UHGV virus genome: UHGV-1514873
Reading direction: 5' to 3' (one strand)
Source: a virus
Length of the DNA: 60,731 nucleotides
How positions within the stretch are numbered: position 1 is the stretch's first letter; every line of letters begins with the position of its first letter. The position numbers and the translations under genes are program-made. Below are positions 11,182-27,576 of this stretch, one piece after another. Under the pieces are notes generated by a model. That model was given only the letters and a program-made list of their open reading frames with translations. It was not told the origin of the DNA and did not search any database.

Positions 11182-11874
11182 ATGTTATATGCATTTAAGC
11201 TGGGCAGAAAACTGCGCGGCGAGGAACCTTATTGCCCTGAAAAAGGCGGGAAAGGTGGCAGTTCTGATAAAAGTGCAAAGTATGCCGCAGAAGCTCAGAA
11301 GTATGCCGCAGACCTGCAAAATAAGCAGTTCAACACCATCATGAACAACCTGAAGCCGTTTACTCCTCTGGCTGATAAGTATCTCGGCAGCCTCGAGAAC
11401 TTATCGTCTCTGGAAGGGCAAGGTCAGGCGCTTAACCAGTATTACAACTCTCAGCAGTATAAAGATCTTGCTGGTCAGGCTCGCTATCAGAGTCTGGCGG
11501 CAGCGGAAGCAACAGGTGGATTGGGTTCCACCGCAACCAGTAATCAGTTAGCAACAATCGCACCAACGCTTGGTCAGCAATGGCTATCTGGACAAATGAA
11601 CAATTACAACAACCTGGCAAATATCGGTCTTGGCGCTCTTCAGGGACAGGCAAACGCCGGGCAAACATATGCCAACAACATGAGTCAGATTTCGCAGCAA
11701 AGCGCAGCACTGGCGGCGGCAAACGCCAACCGACCGTCAGCATTGCAGCAGGGTGTTAGTGGTGCTGCATCCGGTGCGCTTTTGGGTGGTGGCATAGCCA
11801 GTGCTCTCGAGCTATCAACTCCGTGGGGGGCTGGTATTGGTGCTGGTCTTGGTCTGCTTGGTTCACTGTTTTAA
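11182..11874 (+). CDS. ejection (internal virion) protein, gp7-like
   Basis: 230 aa, Q/N/G/A-rich, position as P22 gene 7. Confidence 0.6.
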   Translation: MLYAFKLGRKLRGEEPYCPEKGGKGGSSDKSAKYAAEAQKYAADLQNKQFNTIMNNLKPFTPLADKYLGSLENLSSLEGQGQALNQYYNSQQYKDLAGQARYQSLAAAEATGGLGSTATSNQLATIAPTLGQQWLSGQMNNYNNLANIGLGALQGQANAGQTYANNMSQISQQSAALAAANANRPSALQQGVSGAASGALLGGGIASALELSTPWGAGIGAGLGLLGSLF

Positions 11875-11884
11875 GGGTTAATCA

Positions 11885-13300
11885 ATGGCTACGTGGCAAC
11901 AGGGTATTAATTCTGGTGGTTTTCTGGCTGGCATTGGTACGCAAAATGAGAATGCACCAAAGGCAAGCGACATTAACGCAACGCTTGGTCTGATTCGCGA
12001 AAACAATGAACTGGCTCGATCAGGTGCAAATAACGTTGGTCTGACCGCGTTACGTGGTCTGGCTGGAGTTGCTGATATTTACAATCAGGAACAGCAACAG
12101 AAAGCGATTAGTGCGTTCAATAAGGTTCATGCTGATGCATGGGCTTCTGGTGATCCATCGGGACTATTTAAGTTTGCCCAGGAAAATCCAGCGTTTGTTG
12201 CACAGGCACAACAGGCGTTTTCCGGTCTTAATGATCAGCAACGCAACGATATGGGCGATTTAGCCATGAGGGCTAACGTAGCTCTTTCTCAGGGACCGGA
12301 AGCCTACAGTAAATTCATTACTGACAACAAGGACAGGTTAAATCGCGTTGGTGCTAATGCTGACTGGATGATTCAGACAGGTATCCAGAATCCAGAGCAG
12401 CTATCACACATGCTGACTACTATGTCTCTCGGTGCACTTGGGCCAGAAAAGGCGTTTGCTGTTCAGGACAAGATGGCTGGTCGTGAAATTGACCGAGGCA
12501 GACTGGCAGAGACAATCCGCAGCAATCAGGCTGGAGAAGCACTTCAGGCGAGAGGCCAAAACCTTTCCTATCAGTCAGCAATGACTGGGCACAATATCGC
12601 AGCACAACGTTTGGCTCTGGATCAGCAAGAGTTCGGGTTTAAGATGCAGCAAGCGCAGGAAAAGGCTCAGCAGTTGATTAGCGAAGCACCTAAGCTGTCA
12701 GTAAACATGGAAAAAGGCATCGAGACGGCTGTAAACAATGCCACAGCATCATCAAACTCAGCCAATTCTATGAGTGCGCTTGCTCAACAGTTCAGAGCAG
12801 AAAAACCAACGACAGGTTTGTTCGGTAACGCACAGAACATGTTCGCAAAACTTACCGGAAGCGATACGACATTGCGTGATTTGCGCATTCGCCAAAATGC
12901 CCTTGTTAACAGTCAGGTTCTTAAATTCCTACCTCCCGGCCCCGCAACGGATAAAGACGTTGAGATCGTTCGTCAGGGTGCACCAACTGACATGGATAAC
13001 CCTGAGACGGTCGCAAGATGGCTTGATGCTATGGCAAACCTTGAGCGACGAAACGCGCAGTTTAATGAGTTTAAAGCCGAGTGGATGAGCGCGAATGGCA
13101 ACCCTGGACAATCGCGTAATGGCGGTCAGATATTGGGGTTGGATGTTAAAAAAGGTGAATCATTGGGGAGTGCCGTTAAGCGGTATATGTCAATGAATAC
13201 TGACGCAGCGCCAGCACAAGATTCGACACCTTCAGGAGAACCACGGAATCAGGTTGGATCATATACCTCAAAATCAGGCATTCAATTTACGGTGGAATGA
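11885..13300 (+). CDS. ejection protein, gp20-like
   Basis: 471 aa, position as P22 gene 20. Confidence 0.65.
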
Positions 13301-15138
13301 TGAAAGTAACTGCAAACGGTAAGACATTTACCTTTCCTGATGGTACGAGCACCGAAGATATTGGCACCGCCATTGATGAGTATTTTGCTGGTCAGGCTGT
13401 TCAGCAACAAACAGCTAATCAGGCCAATAATGCACCAACACGGGAAGAACCATCATTGATGCAACAAGCTGGCGATTGGCTTACTGGTAGTCAAAGTGCA
13501 GGGCAAATTGCAGAACAGGCTGGTCGTGGTCTGGTAAACATACCATTTGACGTATTGCAGGGCGGCGCAAGTCTGATTAATGCAATCAGTCAGGGGCTTG
13601 GTGGACCCAAGGTTTTGGATGATGTTTATCGTCCAGTAGACAGACCGACAGACCCCTACGCGCAAGCCGGTGAAACAATTGGTGGGTATTTAGTTCCAGG
13701 AGTTGGAACAGCAGGAAGCATGGCTATTGGATCACTGGCAGAGGCAGCAAATCAGAAAGGCGATTTCGCACAAAATGCAGCTAAAAATGCCGGAGTTAAC
13801 CTTGCCGCTCAGGGTGTTCTTTCCGCAGCAGCAAAGGGAATAGGGCGTGGAATAACGGCTATAAAAGGTGATATTGCGCCAGAAGTGGCGAAGAAAATTG
13901 CCACATCAGAATCTATGGGCGTGACACCAATGACATCTGATGTTATCCCGCCGAAAAATGCTTTCACTCGCGGCCTTACTCAGGATGCCGAGGGGGCTTT
14001 GCTCGGGACAGGCTCAAAGCGAGCGGAGCAATATGCAACGCGTAGTAAGCTGGTAAGCAATTATTTTGACCGTTTTGGTGAGTACAACCCTGATGACGTG
14101 GTGAAATCTCTGACCACCACGTTAAGGGGGCGGAAGGATGCCGCTGGCGCTGTTATCAATGACGTCACCAATAAAATGGGTAATGCCGCAGTTGATACCA
14201 CAAATACCATGAATGCTCTGAATACAGCGATCGCAAGACAGGAACGGCTTGGGACGTCTGCCAATCAAAGCCTGCTTACATCCTTGCGTAACCTACGTGA
14301 AGAATTAGCAGACCCTGCAACTGATTTGGATGTTACGTTTGATCTCTTGCGTCAGCACAGAACAGCATTTAGATCTAATGTTCAGGGAGATGCTATGGTC
14401 TTCCCCAACCAGGCAAAAGCAGCTACCAATATGGTAGAGAATGCAATGTCAAAAGACCTTCGTAACGCAGTTGCTAAAAACCTCGGTGCATCAGACGCAG
14501 CAAAATACCTTAAAGCAAATTCCGATTATGCAAACGTTTATAATAAGGTGCTTAATAAAAACATTGCTAACAAGCTCAACAAGGCAAGCAGTGAAGCCAG
14601 TCCTGAACTTATAAATACCGTTGTATTAAGCAGAAAACCATCTGACGTGAAACGAATCTGGAGCGCATTGGATGATAAAGGGAAAGATGCTATGCGTGCA
14701 GCTTACGTCAGCAAAATAGCGGAAAAGGCTGGTGACTCTCCAGCCAAGTTCATCACTGAAGTTAATAAGCTGAAATCTCAGTCAGGCGGTGAAATTTACA
14801 ACACTATTTTTTCTGGAAAGCACATGAAAGAGCTTGATGCTCTTCATGAAGTTCTACAGCAAACAGCAAGGTCAGACACCGCAAATGTAGTAACTCAGAC
14901 GGGGCAATCGCAAGCCAACAGGATAAGGACGATTGGCGCAACTGCGACTCTTGGCGTATCAATGGGGCTTGAGGCTGGTTTCGGTGCAATGATGCGCTTG
15001 TATGAGTCCAAAGCAGCAAGGAATGCTCTCTTACGTTTGGCAAACACCAAAGCAGGAACGCCAGCCTATGAAAGAGCGTTGAGTAACGCTGCAAATGCCA
15101 TCAGGCCGCTGCTTGCTACTGAGGCAACACAGCAGTAA
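13297..15138 (+). CDS. ejection protein, gp16-like
   Basis: 613 aa, position as P22 gene 16. Confidence 0.65.
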
Positions 15139-15162
15139 CGTATGGGGAATGGGATTCAATCG

Positions 15163-15552
15163 TTAACATTTTCTTTTTACTTTTCCAACAAAAGCTTTGG
15201 TTGAATCCATATTCCCATAACCAGAAATGGTTTTCGACATTAAAACTGTTCCATTAGGATGTATTACCCATGAGTCGATAACTCGTTGAGTTTCGCCATT
15301 CGCGCCGATTCCAATGATGGAGTTTTTAGACAATGCTTTGTAAGCCATGCCGCCCGCATCCGTCCCAGAATATGTGATACTGGCATCTTCACCGTTTGTC
15401 TTAATGATGAATGTTCCACTAAAACCATCTTCTTCCGGTTGAAAATTATTTCGTTCTGAATAGCTTATTCCGTGCATATCGCCAACGACCCAGCACTCTG
15501 CTGTAGCCCCAAAAGATATGAATAAGAACATAGCAGCAAGAACTTTCTTCAC
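15163..15552 (-). CDS. secreted periplasmic protein of unknown function (moron)
   Basis: Signal peptide MKKVLAAMFLFISFGATA; occupies sieA position after gene 16. Confidence 0.55.
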   Translation of the reverse strand: MKKVLAAMFLFISFGATAECWVVGDMHGISYSERNNFQPEEDGFSGTFIIKTNGEDASITYSGTDAGGMAYKALSKNSIIGIGANGETQRVIDSWVIHPNGTVLMSKTISGYGNMDSTKAFVGKVKRKC

Positions 15553-15657
15553 ACCAACCTCCTTAGTTTTGAGCAGGATACCATGAAAAAAGTAAACATC
15601 TTTTGCCTACTTCACATTTGAATGTTTTGTCATTAGGATGTTTCCGGTTTTTTAAAT

Positions 15658-16089
15658 ATGGAAATTGATATGAAGAGGATTATTAGCGTCGTTGCTGGCG
15701 CTATCATGTTATCTGGGTGCGCAACTATTGTTGGTGATGAAACGCAACTTGTGCAAGTGAACAGCAATCCTTCCGGTGCGAGCTTTAAGGTAAAAGACGA
15801 ATCAGGCGTGATTGTTGCGCAAGGTAAGACCCCGCAAGGAGTAACTCTTGCCAAGTCAGATGGTAGTTATTTTGGCAAAAAGAGCTACCAGATCACTATG
15901 GAGAAGGATGGGTACGAACCAGTTACCCTGCCAATCAAAGCCAATGCTAATGGTTGGTATATTGGTGGAAACCTTGTGTTTGGTGGGTTAATTGGTTGGC
16001 TTGCTGTAGATCCATTTAATGGTGGGATGTATACCTTGAAGCCTAAAGAGGCAAATGCATCCCTTATACCGTCCACAAAGCACGACTAA
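15658..16089 (+). CDS. lipoprotein with PEGA-like domain (moron)
   Basis: Lipobox IMLSGC; PEGA-like segment; alternative start 15670 (MKRIIS); divergent from 15163-15552. Confidence 0.6.
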   Translation: MEIDMKRIISVVAGAIMLSGCATIVGDETQLVQVNSNPSGASFKVKDESGVIVAQGKTPQGVTLAKSDGSYFGKKSYQITMEKDGYEPVTLPIKANANGWYIGGNLVFGGLIGWLAVDPFNGGMYTLKPKEANASLIPSTKHD

Positions 16090-16095
16090 TAAATG

Positions 16096-16120
16096 GAACC
16101 CACCATCAGGTGGGTTTTTT
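16096..16120 (+). terminator. terminator after lipoprotein gene, overlapping 3' end of mnt
   Basis: aacccacc/atca/ggtgggtt hairpin followed by TTTTTT. Confidence 0.6.
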
Positions 16121-16357
16121 GTACAAATCCTTCAGCGTATCAAACACCATCTTCTTAACAAGTTCGGACTGCTCATCAGCGATGCGTTCCGCATCGTCTC
16201 GATAGCCTGAAATTTTGGATGGCTTTGATACAGCATCAGTCACTATCTGAACTAATTCTGAATTAAGAGAGCGGCCATTGGATTTGGCTCGCTGTTTTAG
16301 TTTTTCCTTTAATTCGTAAGGTAGCCGCAGATTAAATTGCGGGTCATCTCTTCCCAT
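16106..16357 (-). CDS. mnt: Mnt repressor (ribbon-helix-helix)
   Basis: 83 aa, near-identical to P22 Mnt as recalled (MGRDDPQFNLRLPYELKEKLKQRAKSNGRSLNSELVQIV...KKMVFDTLKDLYKK). Confidence 0.9.
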   Translation of the reverse strand: MGRDDPQFNLRLPYELKEKLKQRAKSNGRSLNSELVQIVTDAVSKPSKISGYRDDAERIADEQSELVKKMVFDTLKDLYKKPT

Positions 16358-16420
16358 TCTTGATGCCTCGCTTTTGTGAGTGGATCGGCATCTTATTATC
16401 TGCTGGTTGCATCCTCAATA

Positions 16421-16435
16421 AGACCACAGTGGTCT
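16421..16435. promoter_or_regulatory. Mnt operator-like palindrome
   Basis: agaccacAgtggtct perfect inverted repeat, analogous to P22 Omnt, between mnt and tailspike. Confidence 0.5.
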
Positions 16436-16503
16436 CTTTGTTTGATTAATAATACATCACTGTGGCAATGCTGCGGCGATTCCTTGTATCTGGAGCAAAT
16501 TAA

Positions 16504-19449
16504 ATGACAGACATTACAGCCAATGTTGTAGTGAGTATGCCTTCGCAACTCTTCACTATGGCGCGTTCTTTTAAAGCCGTAGCCAATGGCAAAATTTATA
16601 TCGGTAAAATTGACACTGACCCGGTAAATCCTGAAAACCAGATTCAGGTTTATGTAGAGAACGAAGACGGTTCTCACATTCCTGTTTCGCAACCAATAAT
16701 CATTAACGCTGCTGGATATCCGGTATATAACGGACAGATTGCCAAATTCGTAACCGTGCAAGGCCATTCTATGGCTGTTTATGATGCGTATGGTACACAG
16801 CAGTTCTATTTTCCGAATGTGCTGAAGTATGATCCTGATCAGTTACGACAGCAATTAGAAGACCCAGATGGAGCGAATAAATACCCAAAACTTCAGATAG
16901 CAAGATGGAGAGACAGTTATGATGTAAGAGGTTGGGGGGCTATTGGTGATGGTGTTCATGATGATACATCAGCTCTATCAGAATTACTTTCTGTTGCAAC
17001 AGGTGGTGAAAAGATAGATGGGCGAGGGCTTACTTTTAAAGTATCAACTCTTCCAGATGTCAGTCGATTTAAAAATGCTCGTTTTTTATTTGAGAGAATA
17101 CCGGGTCAGCCTCTTTTTTATGCTTCTGAAGATTTTATCCAAGGAGAGTTATTTAAAATTACAGATACACCGTGGTACAACGCCTGGACGCAGGATAAAA
17201 CGTTTGTATATGACAATGTCATCTATGCGCCTTTTATGGCTGGAGACCGCCATGGTGTAAATAACCTCCATGTTGCATGGGTTCGCTCAGGAGATGACGG
17301 GAAGACCTGGACAACGCCGGAATGGCTTACAGATTTACATGAAAACTATCCCACAGTTAACTATCACTGCATGAGTATGGGGGTTGTCAGAAATCGCCTT
17401 TTTGCTGTAATTGAGACGCGGACCGTGAGCGGAAATAAACTGCAGGTTGCAGAGTTGTGGGATCGCCCAATGAGTCGCAGCCTTCGCGTTTATGGTGGTA
17501 TAACGAAAGCAGCAAATCAGCAAGTCGCTTATATTCGCATTACTGATCACGGATTATTTGCTGGTGATTTTGTCAACTTCTCAAACTCTGGTGTTACAGG
17601 TGTTACCGGGAATATGACGGTGACTACTGTCATTGATAAAAATACTTTTACAGTTACGACGCAAAATACCCAGGATGTGGATCAGAATAACGAGGGTAGA
17701 TACTGGAGTTTTGGTACATCATTTCACTCGTCACCATGGAGAAAAACCAGTCTTGGAACTATTCCTTCTTTTGTTGACGGAAGCACTCCTGTTACTGAGA
17801 TTCACAGTTTTGCGACGATTAGCGATAACAGTTTTGCTGTTGGCTACCATAATGGTGATATTGATCCACGCGAGCTTGGGATACTCTATTTCTCTGATGC
17901 TTTCGGTTCTCCTGGTAGCTTTGTTCGCAGACGCATACCTGTAGAATATGAGGCGAATGCATCTGAGCCATGTGTAAAATATTATGATGGCATTCTGTAT
18001 CTGACGACCAGGGGGACATTAAGTACTCAACCCGGTAGTTCATTGCACAGAAGCTCTGATTTAGGTACATCATGGAATTCTCTTCGCTTCCCAAATAATG
18101 TTCATCACTCAAACCTTCCTTTTGCCAAAGTTGGCGATGAGCTGATTATTTTTGGCAGTGAGCGCGCATTTGGTGAGTGGGAAGGAGGAGAACCTGATAA
18201 CCGTTATGCAGGAAATTATCCAAGAACATTTATGACCAGAGTTAACGTCAATGAGTGGAGTCTGGATAATGTAGAGTGGGTTAATGTTACTGATCAGATT
18301 TATCAGGGCGGAATAGTTAACTCTGCGGTTGGTGTTGGTTCAGTTTGTATCAAAGACAACTGGCTGTACTACATTTTCGGTGGGGAAGACTTTCTAAACC
18401 CATGGAGCATAGGGGATAACAACAGAAAATATCCTTATGTTCACGATGGTCACCCGGCTGATTTGTATTGTTTCAGGGTGAAAATTAAACAGGAAGAATT
18501 TGTTTCAAGGGATTTTGTCTACGGAGCCACTCCTAACAGAACGCTTCCTACTTTTATGTCGACGTCAGGCGTGAGGACGGTTCCTGTACCCGTTGATTTC
18601 ACAGATGATGTTGCCGTCCAGTCACTGACTGTCCATGCCGGTACATCAGGACAAGTTCGCGCGGAAGTCAAACTTGAGGGTAATTACGCCATTATTGCGA
18701 AGAAAGTACCGTCTGATGATGTTACCGCTCAGAGATTAATCGTTAGCGGCGGTGAAACAACGTCTTCAGCAGATGGCGCAATGATAACGTTGCATGGTTC
18801 CGGAAGCAGTACTCCACGTCGCGCGGTATATAACGCACTCGAACATCTTTTTGAGAACGGAGATGTTAAACCTTATCTTGATAATGTAAATGCTCTTGGT
18901 GGTCCGGGAAACAGGTTCTCGACAGTTTATCTTGGCTCCAATCCTGTGGTTACCAGTGACGGAACATTAAAGACAGAGGCGGTCTCTCCTGACGAAGCAT
19001 TGCTGGATGCCTGGGGTGACGTCAGGTATATCGCTTATAAATGGCTGAACGCTGTCGCTATAAAGGGGGAAGAAGGGGCGAGGATACATCATGGTGTAAT
19101 CGCGCAGCAACTTCGTGATGTTCTTATTTCTCACGGACTCATGGAAGAAGAAAGCACAACATGCCGCTATGCCTTTCTTTGCTATGACGATTATCCCGCA
19201 GTATATGATGACGTCATTACTGGCCAAAGGGAAATACCGCTGACTGATAATGACGGGAGCATCATTGTTGATGAGGATGATAATCCAGTGATGGTAATGG
19301 AAGACATCATTGAGCGCGTTGAAATAACGCCAGCAGGATCTAGATGGGGGGTCAGACCTGATCTCTTATTCTATATCGAGGCGGCATGGCAGCGCAGAGA
19401 AATAGAAAGAATAAAAGCTAGGTTAGACTTAATAGAAGGGAAGCACTAA
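16504..19449 (+). CDS. tailspike: P22 gp9-type head-binding domain + sialidase (endosialidase-like) domain + C-terminal chaperone-like domain
   Basis: N-terminal ~120 aa match P22 tailspike ([11 protein letters not shown]...[22 protein letters not shown]); two Asp-box motifs SGDDGKTW and SSDLGTSW; 981 aa. Confidence 0.85.
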
Positions 19450-19602
19450 ATGTTTCGTTGGCGTCAAAAATATGAACTGCTCACATAAAGAAGTAAGTAC
19501 ATTGGCAAAAAACATTGACGTCAACGAAATTAAATATAAAAATTTAAATGCTTTTTAATGACAAGAAAAGTAACTAGTGGTAAAATAACGTAGGATACTA
19601 AT

Positions 19603-20316
19603 ATGTCAAGACTCAAGACTCAAGACTCAAGACTCAAGACTCAAGACTCAAGACTCAAGACTCAAGACTCGTTTTCCGTTGATGATAATGGGTCAGGTAA
19701 TATTTTTGTATGTGGAGATCTTGTAAATAGCAAAGAGAATAAAGTTCAGTTCAATGGAAACAATAACAAACTTATTATAGAAGATGATGTTGAGTGTCGA
19801 TGGCTTACCGTAATATTTAGGGGTGATAATAATTACGTAAGAATACATAAAAACAGTAAGATTAAAGGTGATATTGTCGCAACAAAAGGTTCAAAAGTTA
19901 TTATCGGTAGAAGAACGACAATAGGTGCAGGTTTTGAAGTCGTCACTGATAAGTGCAATGTTACAATTGGCCATGACTGCATGATAGCAAGAGATGTTAT
20001 TTTGCGTGCATCAGATGGGCATCCTATATTTGATATTCATAGCAAAAAAAGGATTAATTGGGCAAAAGATATCATTATATCTAGTTACGTATGGGTAGGG
20101 AGAAATGTCTCTATAATGAAAGGGGTATCTGTTGGAAGCGGATCTGTCATTGGGTATGGGAGTATTGTAACTAAAGATGTGCCATCTATGTGTGCAGCAG
20201 CCGGTAATCCAGCAAAAATAATAAAAAGAAATATAATATGGGCAAGAACGGATAAAGCGGAGCTAATTAGTGATGACAAGAGATGCTCCAGCTATCATGC
20301 GAAGCTCACGCAATAA
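19603..20316 (+). CDS. neuO: phase-variable polysialic acid O-acetyltransferase NeuO-like (hexapeptide-repeat acyltransferase)
   Basis: ATG followed by 9 x AAGACTC (3 x RLKTQDS) then left-handed beta-helix acyltransferase body. Confidence 0.85.
   Translation: MSRLKTQDSRLKTQDSRLKTQDSFSVDDNGSGNIFVCGDLVNSKENKVQFNGNNNKLIIEDDVECRWLTVIFRGDNNYVRIHKNSKIKGDIVATKGSKVIIGRRTTIGAGFEVVTDKCNVTIGHDCMIARDVILRASDGHPIFDIHSKKRINWAKDIIISSYVWVGRNVSIMKGVSVGSGSVIGYGSIVTKDVPSMCAAAGNPAKIIKRNIIWARTDKAELISDDKRCSSYHAKLTQ
19608..19670 (+). repeat. 9 tandem copies of heptanucleotide AAGACTC inside 5' end of neuO
   Basis: Counted directly: 63 nt = 9 perfect units. Confidence 0.95.
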
Positions 20317-20693
20317 ATATAAAACATCATGCAGACATATTACCAATATTAATATAAGGTAATAAAAATATAATTTACAAAAAAGCCCGTTGGAAGCGAC
20401 GGGCATTAACCGCGGTAATGGATAAATTATTAATGTTTTTAGATTGTGAACGATATCATATTGTGCGGAAGTAGTGAAGTAACCATGTAAAATGATTGTT
20501 TCATAGCCTATGAGACACACAAGGCTTTGTGCTCTTCTGTGGATGTGTGGCTACATGTTTGAAGATCGTTGTGCCGTATTTGTGACATACACATGGCAAC
20601 ATCATGCCTCAACTTTCTGTTTGTGCCATCAACTATAGATTAGTGAATGCGGTTAATGCTTGCTAAAACAGATAGTTATGATTGGTGCTACAG

Positions 20694-20741
20694 ATTCGTA
20701 ATGCGAAGGTCGTAGGTTCGACTCCTATTATCGGCACCATT
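20694..20741 (+). repeat. att core: 3' 48 nt of tRNA-Thr (thrW-like), copy 1
   Basis: attcgtaatgcgaaggtcgtaggttcgactcctattatcggcaccatt; 5' half of tRNA absent; identical copy at 60193-60240. Confidence 0.85.
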
Positions 20742-20753
20742 TAAATCAATAAG

Positions 20754-21917
20754 TTACACATCATTAGTACCTTCCTTATTTTTTGACTGGGACAAATTTG
20801 GGACCGATGGGTTCAGGATCGAGTCTATTTGCCGTGCGTGTTCGGTAAGGTGATTAGGTGCAAGGTGAGCATATCGACGAACCATTTCGATAGACTCCCA
20901 GCCTCCCATTTCCTGTAACACTGACAACGGGACTCCGGCTTGAACCAGCCAACTTGCCCAGGTGTGTCTCAAGTCGTGAAATCTGAAATCATCAATACCA
21001 GCCCGTCTCAGCGCCGCTTTCCAGGCTGTGTTTGCGTCATACCGCATCTTCCTTACTGTTGGCGCTTTCGTTCCGTCTGGTTTGGTACAGCTTTCCTTGT
21101 ACACAAATACCCAACGGTGATGATTCCCGATTTGTTTTTTCAATACGCGACATGCAGTATCATTCAGCGCAACGCCAATTGCGCGGTTTGATTTACTCTC
21201 TTCCGGGTTTATCCATGCCACCCGGCGCTGCATATCTATTTGTTGCCATTCAAGGTTGATGATGTTCGAGCGTCTTAAGCCTGTTGCCAGTGCAAATTCA
21301 ACAACAGACTTTAATGGCTCCGGACATTCATCAATCAGCCTTTGTGCTTCATGGGGCTCCAGCCAGCGGATCCGTTTATTCTTTGGTTGAGGCACTTTAA
21401 TAATTGGTGCCTTATCCAGCATTTTCCATTCACGCTCTGCGGCTCTTAGTAGGGCCTTTATAAATGAAAGATGCGTAGCCTTCGTTGCAACGGACGCTGG
21501 TTTTGGCGTGTATTCTGGAACAGGTTTCCCTTTTTTTCTGCATGCTTCTGCCCTGAGTTTCCAGTTTTCCTCATGACGCCGGTTCGTCATTTTCTGCATT
21601 GCTGAATAAATTTTTGATTCAGTAATGTCTCTTAGTTGCATTCCTGCGAAATGTTGAAGCCAGAATCCGATCCGGCTTTTGTCATCGTCCAGTGATTTTT
21701 TATGTGCTTTCTCTTCAAGCCACCTGACACACGCTTCCTCGAACGTTATATCAGGTATTTCACCAAGTTTGCTGACCCGCCATGCTTCAGCCTTTAGCTT
21801 GTCATGGAGTTCTGTCGCCTGCCTTTTGTCCTTTGTTCCAAGAGACTGTTTAAATCTTTTACCGTTCGGCAATGTGAAACTGGCGTACCATATTTCACCT
21901 CTGCGGAAGAGTGACAT
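20754..21917 (-). CDS. int: tyrosine integrase, P22 Int-like
   Basis: 387 aa, near-identical to P22 integrase as recalled ([46 protein letters not shown]...). Confidence 0.95.
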
Positions 21918-22144
21918 TTTCTTTCCTCTGTTATGCCATCACCCGCGCTCACCTGGACAGTATGCAGCGGAGACTGAAGAGCCGCAATGCAGGCTTGTCG
22001 TGTTGTGAGGTAAGGAGATTTATTCTTAGTGGGATCTTTGCGTGTTGCCTGAAGACGCCCTGTGCGTATCCAGTTAATGGCAGTCGGTCTGGATATCTTG
22101 AGAAAATGACAGGCCTCATCGAGTGTGAGGCTGTATGGCTCCAT
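21794..22144 (-). CDS. xis: excisionase, P22 Xis-like
   Basis: [38 protein letters not shown]... matches P22 Xis; internal ATG at 22144 chosen over the longer ORF. Confidence 0.85.
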
Positions 22145-22449
22145 TATTTCACCTCTTGCTGTGACATTGTTGAGAAATGGATACCAGCTCGTTGCTGCCA
22201 GACGATCCAACCGAGAGTCATATCCCATGCCATGTATTCGTTATCGCCGTTTTTTGCTCTCCGACGATCTACTAAGTCACCAAAACGCTTTTCCATGAAT
22301 AATTCATAAGCTTCGCGTTCATCTGGTTCTACTTCCAGAGATAGGAGTGCGATTTCATAAGCACGGCGCTCAATATCGTCTCGCACGTCAAGGCTGCTGA
22401 TACGCTCTTTAATTTCTTTAATCAGTTCTTTGTCGGTAAAAGTGGTCAT
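22144..22449 (-). CDS. hypothetical early protein
   Basis: 101-aa ORF translationally coupled to neighbours. Confidence 0.5.
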   Translation of the reverse strand: MTTFTDKELIKEIKERISSLDVRDDIERRAYEIALLSLEVEPDEREAYELFMEKRFGDLVDRRRAKNGDNEYMAWDMTLGWIVWQQRAGIHFSTMSQQEVK

Positions 22450-26645: not shown

Positions 26646-27576
26646 ATTAACCGGCTATGTATGGGATGGTTGCGCTGCGTCAGGCATGAAATTATCCAGC
26701 GTGGCAATTATGGCCCGCCTGGCTGATTTCAGTAATGACGAAGGTGTGTGCTGGCCATCAATTGAAACCATTGCCCGTCAGATTGGCGCGGGGATGAGTA
26801 CCGTCAGGACGGCTATCGCACGGCTGGAAGCAGAAGGCTGGTTAACGCGTAAGGCGCGTCGCCAGGGTAACCGCAATGCGTCGAATGTTTATCAGCTTAA
26901 CGTTGCGAAGCTTCAGGCAGCGGCATTTTCTCAACTGTCAGATTCTGACCCGTCAAAATCTGACGCATCAAAATCTGACCCGTCAAAATTTGATGCGTCG
27001 AAATCTGGCAAAAAAGCGGGTTTTCACCCGTCAGAATCTGGCGGGGATCCGTCAGTAAAATCAAAACATGATCCGTCAGATAAAAAACCTTCTCGTCCGG
27101 ACGCTTCGCAACCGGACACGCAGACGGATGAACAGGATTTTTTAACTCGCCATCCTGATGCGGTTGTATTCAGCCCTAAAAAGCGCCAGTGGGGAACGCA
27201 GGATGATTTGACCTGCGCACAGTGGCTCTGGAAAAAAATCATCGCCCTGTACGAGCAAGCCGCCGAATGTGACGGCAAGGTGGTTCGTCCCAAAGAACCG
27301 AACTGGACAGCCTGGGCAAACGAAATTCGCCTGATGTGTGTGCAGGATGGTCGTACTCACAAACAAATCTGCGAGATGTACAGCCGCGTCAGCCGCGATC
27401 CGTTCTGGTGCCGTAACGTGCTCAGCCCGTCGAAGTTGCGGGAAAAATGGGATGAGCTTTCCCTGCGCTTATCACCGTCCGTCAGCACGTACATCGAAAA
27501 ACGCGAAGACCCGTACTTCAAATCCAGTTACGACAACGTGGACTACAGCCAGATCCCGGCAGGATTCAGGGGGTGA
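26635..27576 (+). CDS. replication initiator, lambda O-like N-terminal domain
   Basis: N-terminal winged-helix segment typical of phage replication-O proteins; iteron array inside gene. Confidence 0.75.
   Translation: MSTKLTGYVWDGCAASGMKLSSVAIMARLADFSNDEGVCWPSIETIARQIGAGMSTVRTAIARLEAEGWLTRKARRQGNRNASNVYQLNVAKLQAAAFSQLSDSDPSKSDASKSDPSKFDASKSGKKAGFHPSESGGDPSVKSKHDPSDKKPSRPDASQPDTQTDEQDFLTRHPDAVVFSPKKRQWGTQDDLTCAQWLWKKIIALYEQAAECDGKVVRPKEPNWTAWANEIRLMCVQDGRTHKQICEMYSRVSRDPFWCRNVLSPSKLREKWDELSLRLSPSVSTYIEKREDPYFKSSYDNVDYSQIPAGFRG
26936..27090 (+). repeat. origin-like iteron array within replication gene
   Basis: Repeated tctgacccgtcaaaa / ccgtcag units with ~18-bp periodicity followed by A-rich tract. 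Confidence 0.6.

Follow-up and report, generated by a model that had tools for sequence, protein, structure and literature searches.

At positions 19603-20316 (+ strand) of the stretch of viral DNA analysed here (60,731 nt; hereafter the window) lies an open reading frame of 237 aa. Its ATG start codon (19603-19605) is followed by TC (19606-19607), and then by nine exact AAGACTC units (19608-19670, + strand), the first of them 2 nt 3′ of the start codon. This arrangement, ATG-TC-(AAGACTC)9 at 19603-19670, is the one that defines the poly-psi locus, a variable number tandem repeat (PMC3046976). Tandem Repeats Finder described the tract as an array of period 7 with 9.3 copies, 100% matches and a score of 130, the highest among the 17 arrays detected in the window. 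The probability of eight further exact copies following a given 7-mer is 4^-56, or about 1e-29 over the whole window; a chance origin of the tract is therefore negligible. The tract encodes three RLKTQDS heptads. Direct reading, a regular-expression search and translation of the open reading frame agreed on the start, the nine exact units and the three heptads, which had already been reported in the initial annotation of this DNA.

With nine units, the translation begins MS(RLKTQDS)x3, and the tract is in frame with the rest of the open reading frame, which ends at 20316 and is predicted to encode a left-handed β-helix body. As a 7-nt unit is not a whole number of codons, the enzyme stays in frame only if the unit count is a multiple of 3. 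Alleles modelled in silico with 6, 9 or 12 units gave full-length products of 230, 237 and 244 aa, while those with 7, 8, 10, 11 or 13 units reached a stop codon after 21-45 aa. The AAGACTC unit is open in every phase of the + strand, and the tract itself never halts translation; the stops in both wrong frames fall just 3′ of it. With a multiple of three units, the allele in the window would be genotype ON. The initial annotation had proposed this state, and had predicted that the gain or loss of one unit would switch the gene OFF; the modelled alleles and the published rule (PMC3046976; PMC13001214) both agree with it.

The body of the protein matched the Pfam family Hexapep (E = 7e-11), as anticipated from the hexapeptide-repeat acyltransferase features noted initially. 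Comparison with PDB entry 3jqy, ‘polysialic acid O-acetyltransferase’, revealed 235 identities in 236 aligned residues (E = 1.1e-156). The heptads were identical too; the sole difference was the conservative replacement of V by I34. The catalytic residues of NeuO have been reported as His147, Trp171 and Arg137 in the numbering of the +12 allele, and as His119 and Trp143, plus an oxyanion Arg, in that of NeuO+0 (PMC3046976). In the window protein they were found as His140, Trp164 and Arg130, precisely where a +9 allele (21 extra residues) predicts them.

NCBIfam holds no NeuO-specific model, and the matches it returned were generic acetyltransferase models of the LacA, Maa and WbbJ types, all weak (E = 1e-17 to 1e-21) and far below their curated cut-offs. 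Such matches might be taken to indicate a generic hexapeptide-repeat acetyltransferase acting on some other substrate (O-antigen, maltose or galactoside-type sugars), in which the repeat would be incidental. This reading is refuted by the sequence identity to NeuO, and we give it practically no chance of being right: a single conservative residue separates the protein from a biochemically and structurally characterised NeuO, and the annotated neuO locus has the very same repeat unit, in the same position and with the same flanks. The next solved relative (2wlc) is also a polysialic acid O-acetyltransferase, and its match reached only E = 4e-31. 2wlc corresponds to OatWY of Neisseria meningitidis W-135/Y and belongs to the same left-handed β-helix family, with a conserved active site, but it is distant in sequence and lacks the N-terminal heptad domain, which has been described as unique to NeuO (PMC3046976).

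At the DNA level, the segment 19400-20450 was 99.6% identical to phage CUS-3 (CP000711), the record of which describes a neuO ‘poly(psi) domain’ with 19 copies of the heptanucleotide repeat AAGACTC. Matches of 99.6-100% were found to 21 phage records annotated as neuO, and of at least 99.7% to 19 partial CUS-3 records annotated as ‘K1 capsule O-acetyltransferase’. The gene has a GC content of 36.7%, compared with 48.8% for the window, which fits a moron or cargo gene. Altogether, 19603-20316 is almost certainly neuO, coding for the phase-variable, acetyl-CoA-dependent O-acetyltransferase of K1 polysialic acid and carried as prophage cargo, so that the assignment first made to the contingency locus of the K1 capsule is upheld. 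The window copy resembles the neuO of CUS-3 from E. coli K1 strain RS218 in the tract placed 2 nt after the ATG, the RLKTQDS heptads, the catalytic residues and the endosialidase tailspike gene immediately upstream. The two differ in unit number, which is 19 (OFF) in the reference record and nine (predicted ON) in the window.

This tailspike gene (16504-19449, + strand) codes for an endo-N-acetylneuraminidase of 981 aa with a P22-type head-binding N-terminus and an intramolecular chaperone C-terminus; its Pfam matches were End_beta_propel (E = 8e-233), End_tail_spike, Head_binding, End_beta_barrel, End_N_terminal and Peptidase_S74. Its DNA was 98.7% identical to siaK1 of CUS-3. The region 1-16500 consists of late genes of the P22-like (Lederbergvirus) type. 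Identity over 1-20300 was 96.3% to HK620 and 98.1% to CUS-3, each covering only 54-59% of that region, and the neuO-carrying phage is therefore a mosaic. The endosialidase tailspike would mark this carrier as a K1-specific P22-like phage; together with the P22-type head-binding domain and the HK620/CUS-3-like late genes, it agrees with the P22-like K1 prophage named in the initial annotation. There were no kps or neu capsule genes in the window, all of which is prophage DNA, and we infer a K1 host solely from the endosialidase and from the relatives of the phage.

The spacer between the tailspike gene and neuO has 153 nt and a GC content of 28%. It includes a putative sigma-70 promoter for neuO (19558-19586, + strand; ATGACA, 17 nt, TAAAAT, with a TG before the -10 element and 10 of 12 consensus positions). 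A promoter scan found seven such sites in the region, compared with 6.5 expected from shuffled sequence, which is the frequency due to chance, and no firm neuO promoter emerged from it. A Shine-Dalgarno-like AGGA (19592-19595, + strand) precedes the ATG by 7 nt and is conserved in all relatives, in the common context TACTAATATGTC. Downstream of neuO, a terminator scan identified a GC-rich, terminator-like hairpin (20385-20404, - strand); the minus strand has a run of T, and on the plus strand a run of A precedes the hairpin. In CUS-3 this region lies 3′ of the convergent intS gene; the hairpin may also end the neuO transcript.

Local BLAST showed the homology to CUS-3 to end at 20537, which is 221 nt past the neuO stop codon and 19 nt short of the position of the CUS-3 intS stop codon. 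CUS-3 is organised as tailspike, neuO, convergent intS and att core, at argW; in the window, an att arm and core of the thrW type take the place of the intS/argW module from 20538 onwards. The left (P) arm of this thrW-type attP (20538-20693) starts at the 20537/20538 breakpoint, and megablast searches with 20560-20760 gave 97-98.5% identity to attP regions of HK75, HK446, mEpX2 and SfX-type phages, annotated as ‘similar to thrW tRNA’. The att core (20694-20739, + strand) corresponds exactly to the 3′ 46 nt of the K-12 tRNA-Thr gene thrW (positions 31-76), including the annotated P22 attP core. The neuO prophage has its right end in this core, which at the same time is the left end of the prophage that follows. 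Self-BLAST revealed a direct att repeat at 20694-20744 and 60193-60244. ARAGORN detected no intact tRNA in the window; both att copies are 3′ fragments of thrW, as expected at the inner junctions of tandem insertions. The contiguity of neuO, att and int had suggested two other interpretations of the window, as a phage genome that is circular or permuted or as a tandem duplicate; both were rejected, because self-BLAST yielded only the 52-nt att repeat and the int gene is that of a different, SfV/SfII-like prophage. CUS-3 in the strict sense has an IntS-type integrase beside neuO and is integrated at argW, and neither feature was found in the window. Judged from its sequence, the carrier would be a CUS-3-like mosaic and not CUS-3 itself.

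The order tailspike, neuO, thrW-type att core is reminiscent of P22, in which gene 9 is followed by gtrCBA, attP and int. The initial annotation had placed neuO in the position that gtr occupies in P22, between the tailspike gene and att. This holds for the window, though CUS-3 has intS between neuO and att. In both P22 and the window, cargo that modifies a surface polysaccharide lies between the tailspike gene and a thrW att site, but the proteins are unrelated, the genes have the opposite orientation, and the gtrABC products glucosylate the O-antigen while NeuO acetylates the capsule. P22 gtr is also phase variable, through an epigenetic (Dam/OxyR) switch and not through repeat slippage.

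The same junction was present in other genomes. In E. coli elppa4, the order is proA, thrW, int and xis, and further on tailspike, neuO (21 units, ON) and att, the element spanning about 41.7 kb. A 20537/20538 junction identical to that of the window was found in elppa4, VTB96933v, GPEC856, GPEC403-625 and E1, that is, in five of about 154 neuO-positive complete genomes. The flanks were 100% identical in the first four, with 21, 24, 23 and 38 units, respectively. No nine-unit allele combined with the thrW junction was seen among the best 60 matches from 5426 complete E. coli genomes. In GPEC403-625 (NZ_CM142769.1), about 40 kb separate two copies of neuO (3944848-3946101 and 3985548-3987108), the first of which is followed by a P22-like int; 38 units were counted directly in one of them and deduced from the span for the other. 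The pair represents either a tandem double lysogen of a thrW-type neuO phage or a duplication introduced during assembly.

It is judged slightly more likely than not that the tailspike-neuO cassette was recombined, with its breakpoint at 20537/20538, onto the backbone of a P22-like phage that had an int/att module of the thrW type. The published insertion sites of neuO are argW and pgl-bioA (PMC9659370). The literature surveyed did not name thrW as a neuO site, though primary papers may already describe it. If the recombination took place as suggested, thrW would join argW and pgl-bioA as a third chromosomal location of neuO, and conversion genes modifying the capsule and the O-antigen would be stacked at a single tRNA hotspot. 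Exchange of int/att modules is commonplace among P22-like phages, and the thrW-type neuO phage is for this reason regarded as a minor variant.

Directly after the neuO phage, and in tandem with it, the window contains a complete SfII/SfV-like prophage with a Mu-like tail (20694-60244), bounded by direct repeats of 46-52 nt from the 3′ end of thrW. It has an int gene (20754-21917, - strand) and an xis-like gene with a helix-turn-helix motif (21794-22228, - strand), and its tail genes were 98% identical to those of SfII. In the early region, a tandem repeat (26944-27007) can be described either as 4.3 copies of a 15-nt unit (TCTGACCCGTCAAAA) with 81% matches or as 2.1 copies of a 30-nt unit; these repeats are possibly iterons or operator-like sites. 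The conversion cargo of this prophage, all on the - strand, comprises a membrane acyltransferase of the Acyl_transf_3 family (55473-56522), a GtrII-family glucosyltransferase gene, gtrII (57246-58706), gtrB (58703-59632) and gtrA (59629-59991). A distance of about 36-40 kb thus separates neuO from the O-antigen-modifying genes (55473-59991), all of them at one tRNA site. The second att copy is immediately followed by the N-terminal part of a P4-type integrase (Arm-DNA-bind_3; 60393-60731, + strand), which runs off the window. Since this integrase follows the second att copy, three mobile elements appear to be stacked at thrW, the third being read as a genomic island resembling CP4-6 or the vat island.

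The neuO locus was detected in 178 of 5426 complete E. coli genomes, always in the chromosome and with a DNA identity of 99.6-100%. Unit numbers were derived from differences in match span. Among the best 60 of the 178 matches, 59 gave whole-unit differences, and the procedure was validated by direct counts in CUS-3 (19), elppa4 (21), GPEC403-625 (38), 729_021014 (19) and 729_yolk (14). The 59 complete genomes so scored, from the best 60 matches, had between 14 and 53 units, 22 of them being ON and 37 OFF. Direct counts in relatives gave 11, 14, 19, 19, 21 and 38 units. Variation was evident even between close isolates: three from poultry clone ‘729’ had 19, 14 and an interrupted 12+17 units, and SCU-123 had 35 units vs 25 in SCU-108. 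Invariance among related isolates, or a protein lacking acetyltransferase homology, had been named at the outset as an argument against a contingency locus; the repeat number differs widely instead, within clone ‘729’ as well, and the protein is nearly identical to NeuO. In the interrupted array (NZ_CP160121.1), 22 nt of imperfect sequence separate a block of 12 units from one of 17; either the tract is truly degenerate or the long-read consensus is in error, the arrays of the sister isolates (19 and 14 units) being clean. Published alleles range from 2-3 up to 93 units (PMC3046976). A survey of 64 complete genomes reported 3-53 units and 65.6% of alleles OFF, and in strain MS7163, for which frequent switching within a culture has been shown, fragment analysis found 93% of cells with 21 units (ON) and minorities with 20 and 22 units (PMC13001214).

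The nine-unit allele is not unusual. An identical 237-aa, nine-unit protein occurred in 110 blocks of a general assembly collection, including contigs of chromosome scale (5.0 and 5.1 Mb). In some assemblies its neighbours are IntS, Form_Nir_trans and MlaA genes, a context taken to be the argW site; in one it lies beside PBP-family, IS605 OrfB and Aminotran_3 genes, read as the pgl-bioA/lambda att side. Since both neighbourhoods accompany the nine-unit protein, one allele length occurs at differing insertion sites.

The count of nine might be thought an artefact, with neuO real but a longer tract collapsed during assembly, in which case the true phase state could not be deduced from the count. 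Length modulo 7 is kept in such a collapse and unit number modulo 3 is not, which would make the ON call unreliable. The shortest tract among the 59 complete genomes closest by identity (from the best 60 matches) had 14 units, the collection in which the nine-unit protein is common is assumed to derive in large part from short reads, and periodic tracts longer than the k-mer of an assembler could in principle be collapsed. Yet nine-unit alleles are also found on the two chromosome-scale contigs, ordinary reads can span a tract of 63 nt, the window is contiguous over 60.7 kb through three tandem mobile elements, and natural alleles as short as 2-3 units, and as long as 93, are on record (PMC3046976; PMC13001214). 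A collapsed tract is accordingly very improbable.

In another reading, the nine units are real but no longer work as a switch. A tract effectively stable at nine units would make neuO a constitutive gene of low activity. In simple-sequence contingency loci the slippage rate rises with tract length, and the recurrence of the identical nine-unit protein in many assemblies, at argW and on the bioA side, could mean a stable allele. The recurrence may equally reflect clonal sampling, however; tracts of 11, 12 and 14 units occur in close relatives, and the published range is continuous from 2-3 units upward, which implies that short tracts do change (PMC3046976; PMC13001214). A stable tract is considered unlikely, if less so than an assembly collapse, and a working switch remains the favoured view. 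A 63-nt tract nevertheless probably has a lower slippage rate than the studied tracts of 20-40 units, a deduction drawn from PMC3046976 and general knowledge.

Phase state also affects how the gene appears in databases. In RefSeq (PGAP), OFF alleles are represented only by a 111-aa C-terminal ‘acyltransferase’ fragment (WP_011478229.1), while ON alleles appear as a full-length ‘acyltransferase’, such as the 265-aa CDS of elppa4 (21 units). PGAP never uses the name neuO, and the annotated proteome thus shifts silently with the phase state.

Sequence identity, frame logic, repeat polymorphism and phage context, as observed in this analysis, can be combined with published work on NeuO into a mechanism. 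The enzyme would modify O7/O9 of the α-2,8 polysialic acid (K1) capsule of E. coli, and its expression would be gated at translation by the AAGACTC tract located two bases after the ATG. In the model described, slippage at this repeat, 2 nt 3′ of the start codon, changes the number of units, and full-length, active NeuO results only from multiples of three; three units make up one RLKTQDS heptad, and catalytic efficiency is linear with heptad number (PMC3046976). The nine-unit copy should therefore produce NeuO with three N-terminal heptads and, given this linear relation, an allele as short as this one would be ON but of low efficiency. Slipped-strand mispairing during replication, with one unit gained or lost, would leave a peptide of 21-45 aa (OFF), and further slippage could return neuO to ON. 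For this allele, enzymatic activity, switching in culture and the phenotypes that may follow (protection from K1 phages and neutrophils, and altered serum sensitivity) are those that the literature would lead one to expect. The proposed switch resembles contingency loci of Haemophilus, Neisseria and Campylobacter in having an intragenic repeat whose unit is not a multiple of 3 and in turning ON and OFF by slippage. Unlike them, neuO is carried on a mobile phage, and its in-frame repeat also tunes the efficiency of the enzyme via heptad number (PMC3046976).

The neuO locus has been known and described in detail since 2005, and the copy in the window is an ordinary rediscovery. What is mildly new is limited to the backbone, of the thrW type, and to the gtr-carrying prophage that follows in tandem; the variant at thrW and its position next to a gtr phage hold minor interest as a case of phage mosaicism. 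Nothing in the finding opens a new question. The practical value of the finding lies in correct annotation, as pipelines give either ‘acyltransferase’ (ON) or a 111-aa fragment (OFF), and the allele in the window should be flagged as genotype ON, by prediction, with only three heptads. neuO has been reported to protect against K1-specific phages and neutrophils, and to be enriched in the ST95 lineage (PMC13001214; PMC9659370). It is a textbook mobile contingency locus, one that alters the antigenicity of the K1 capsule.
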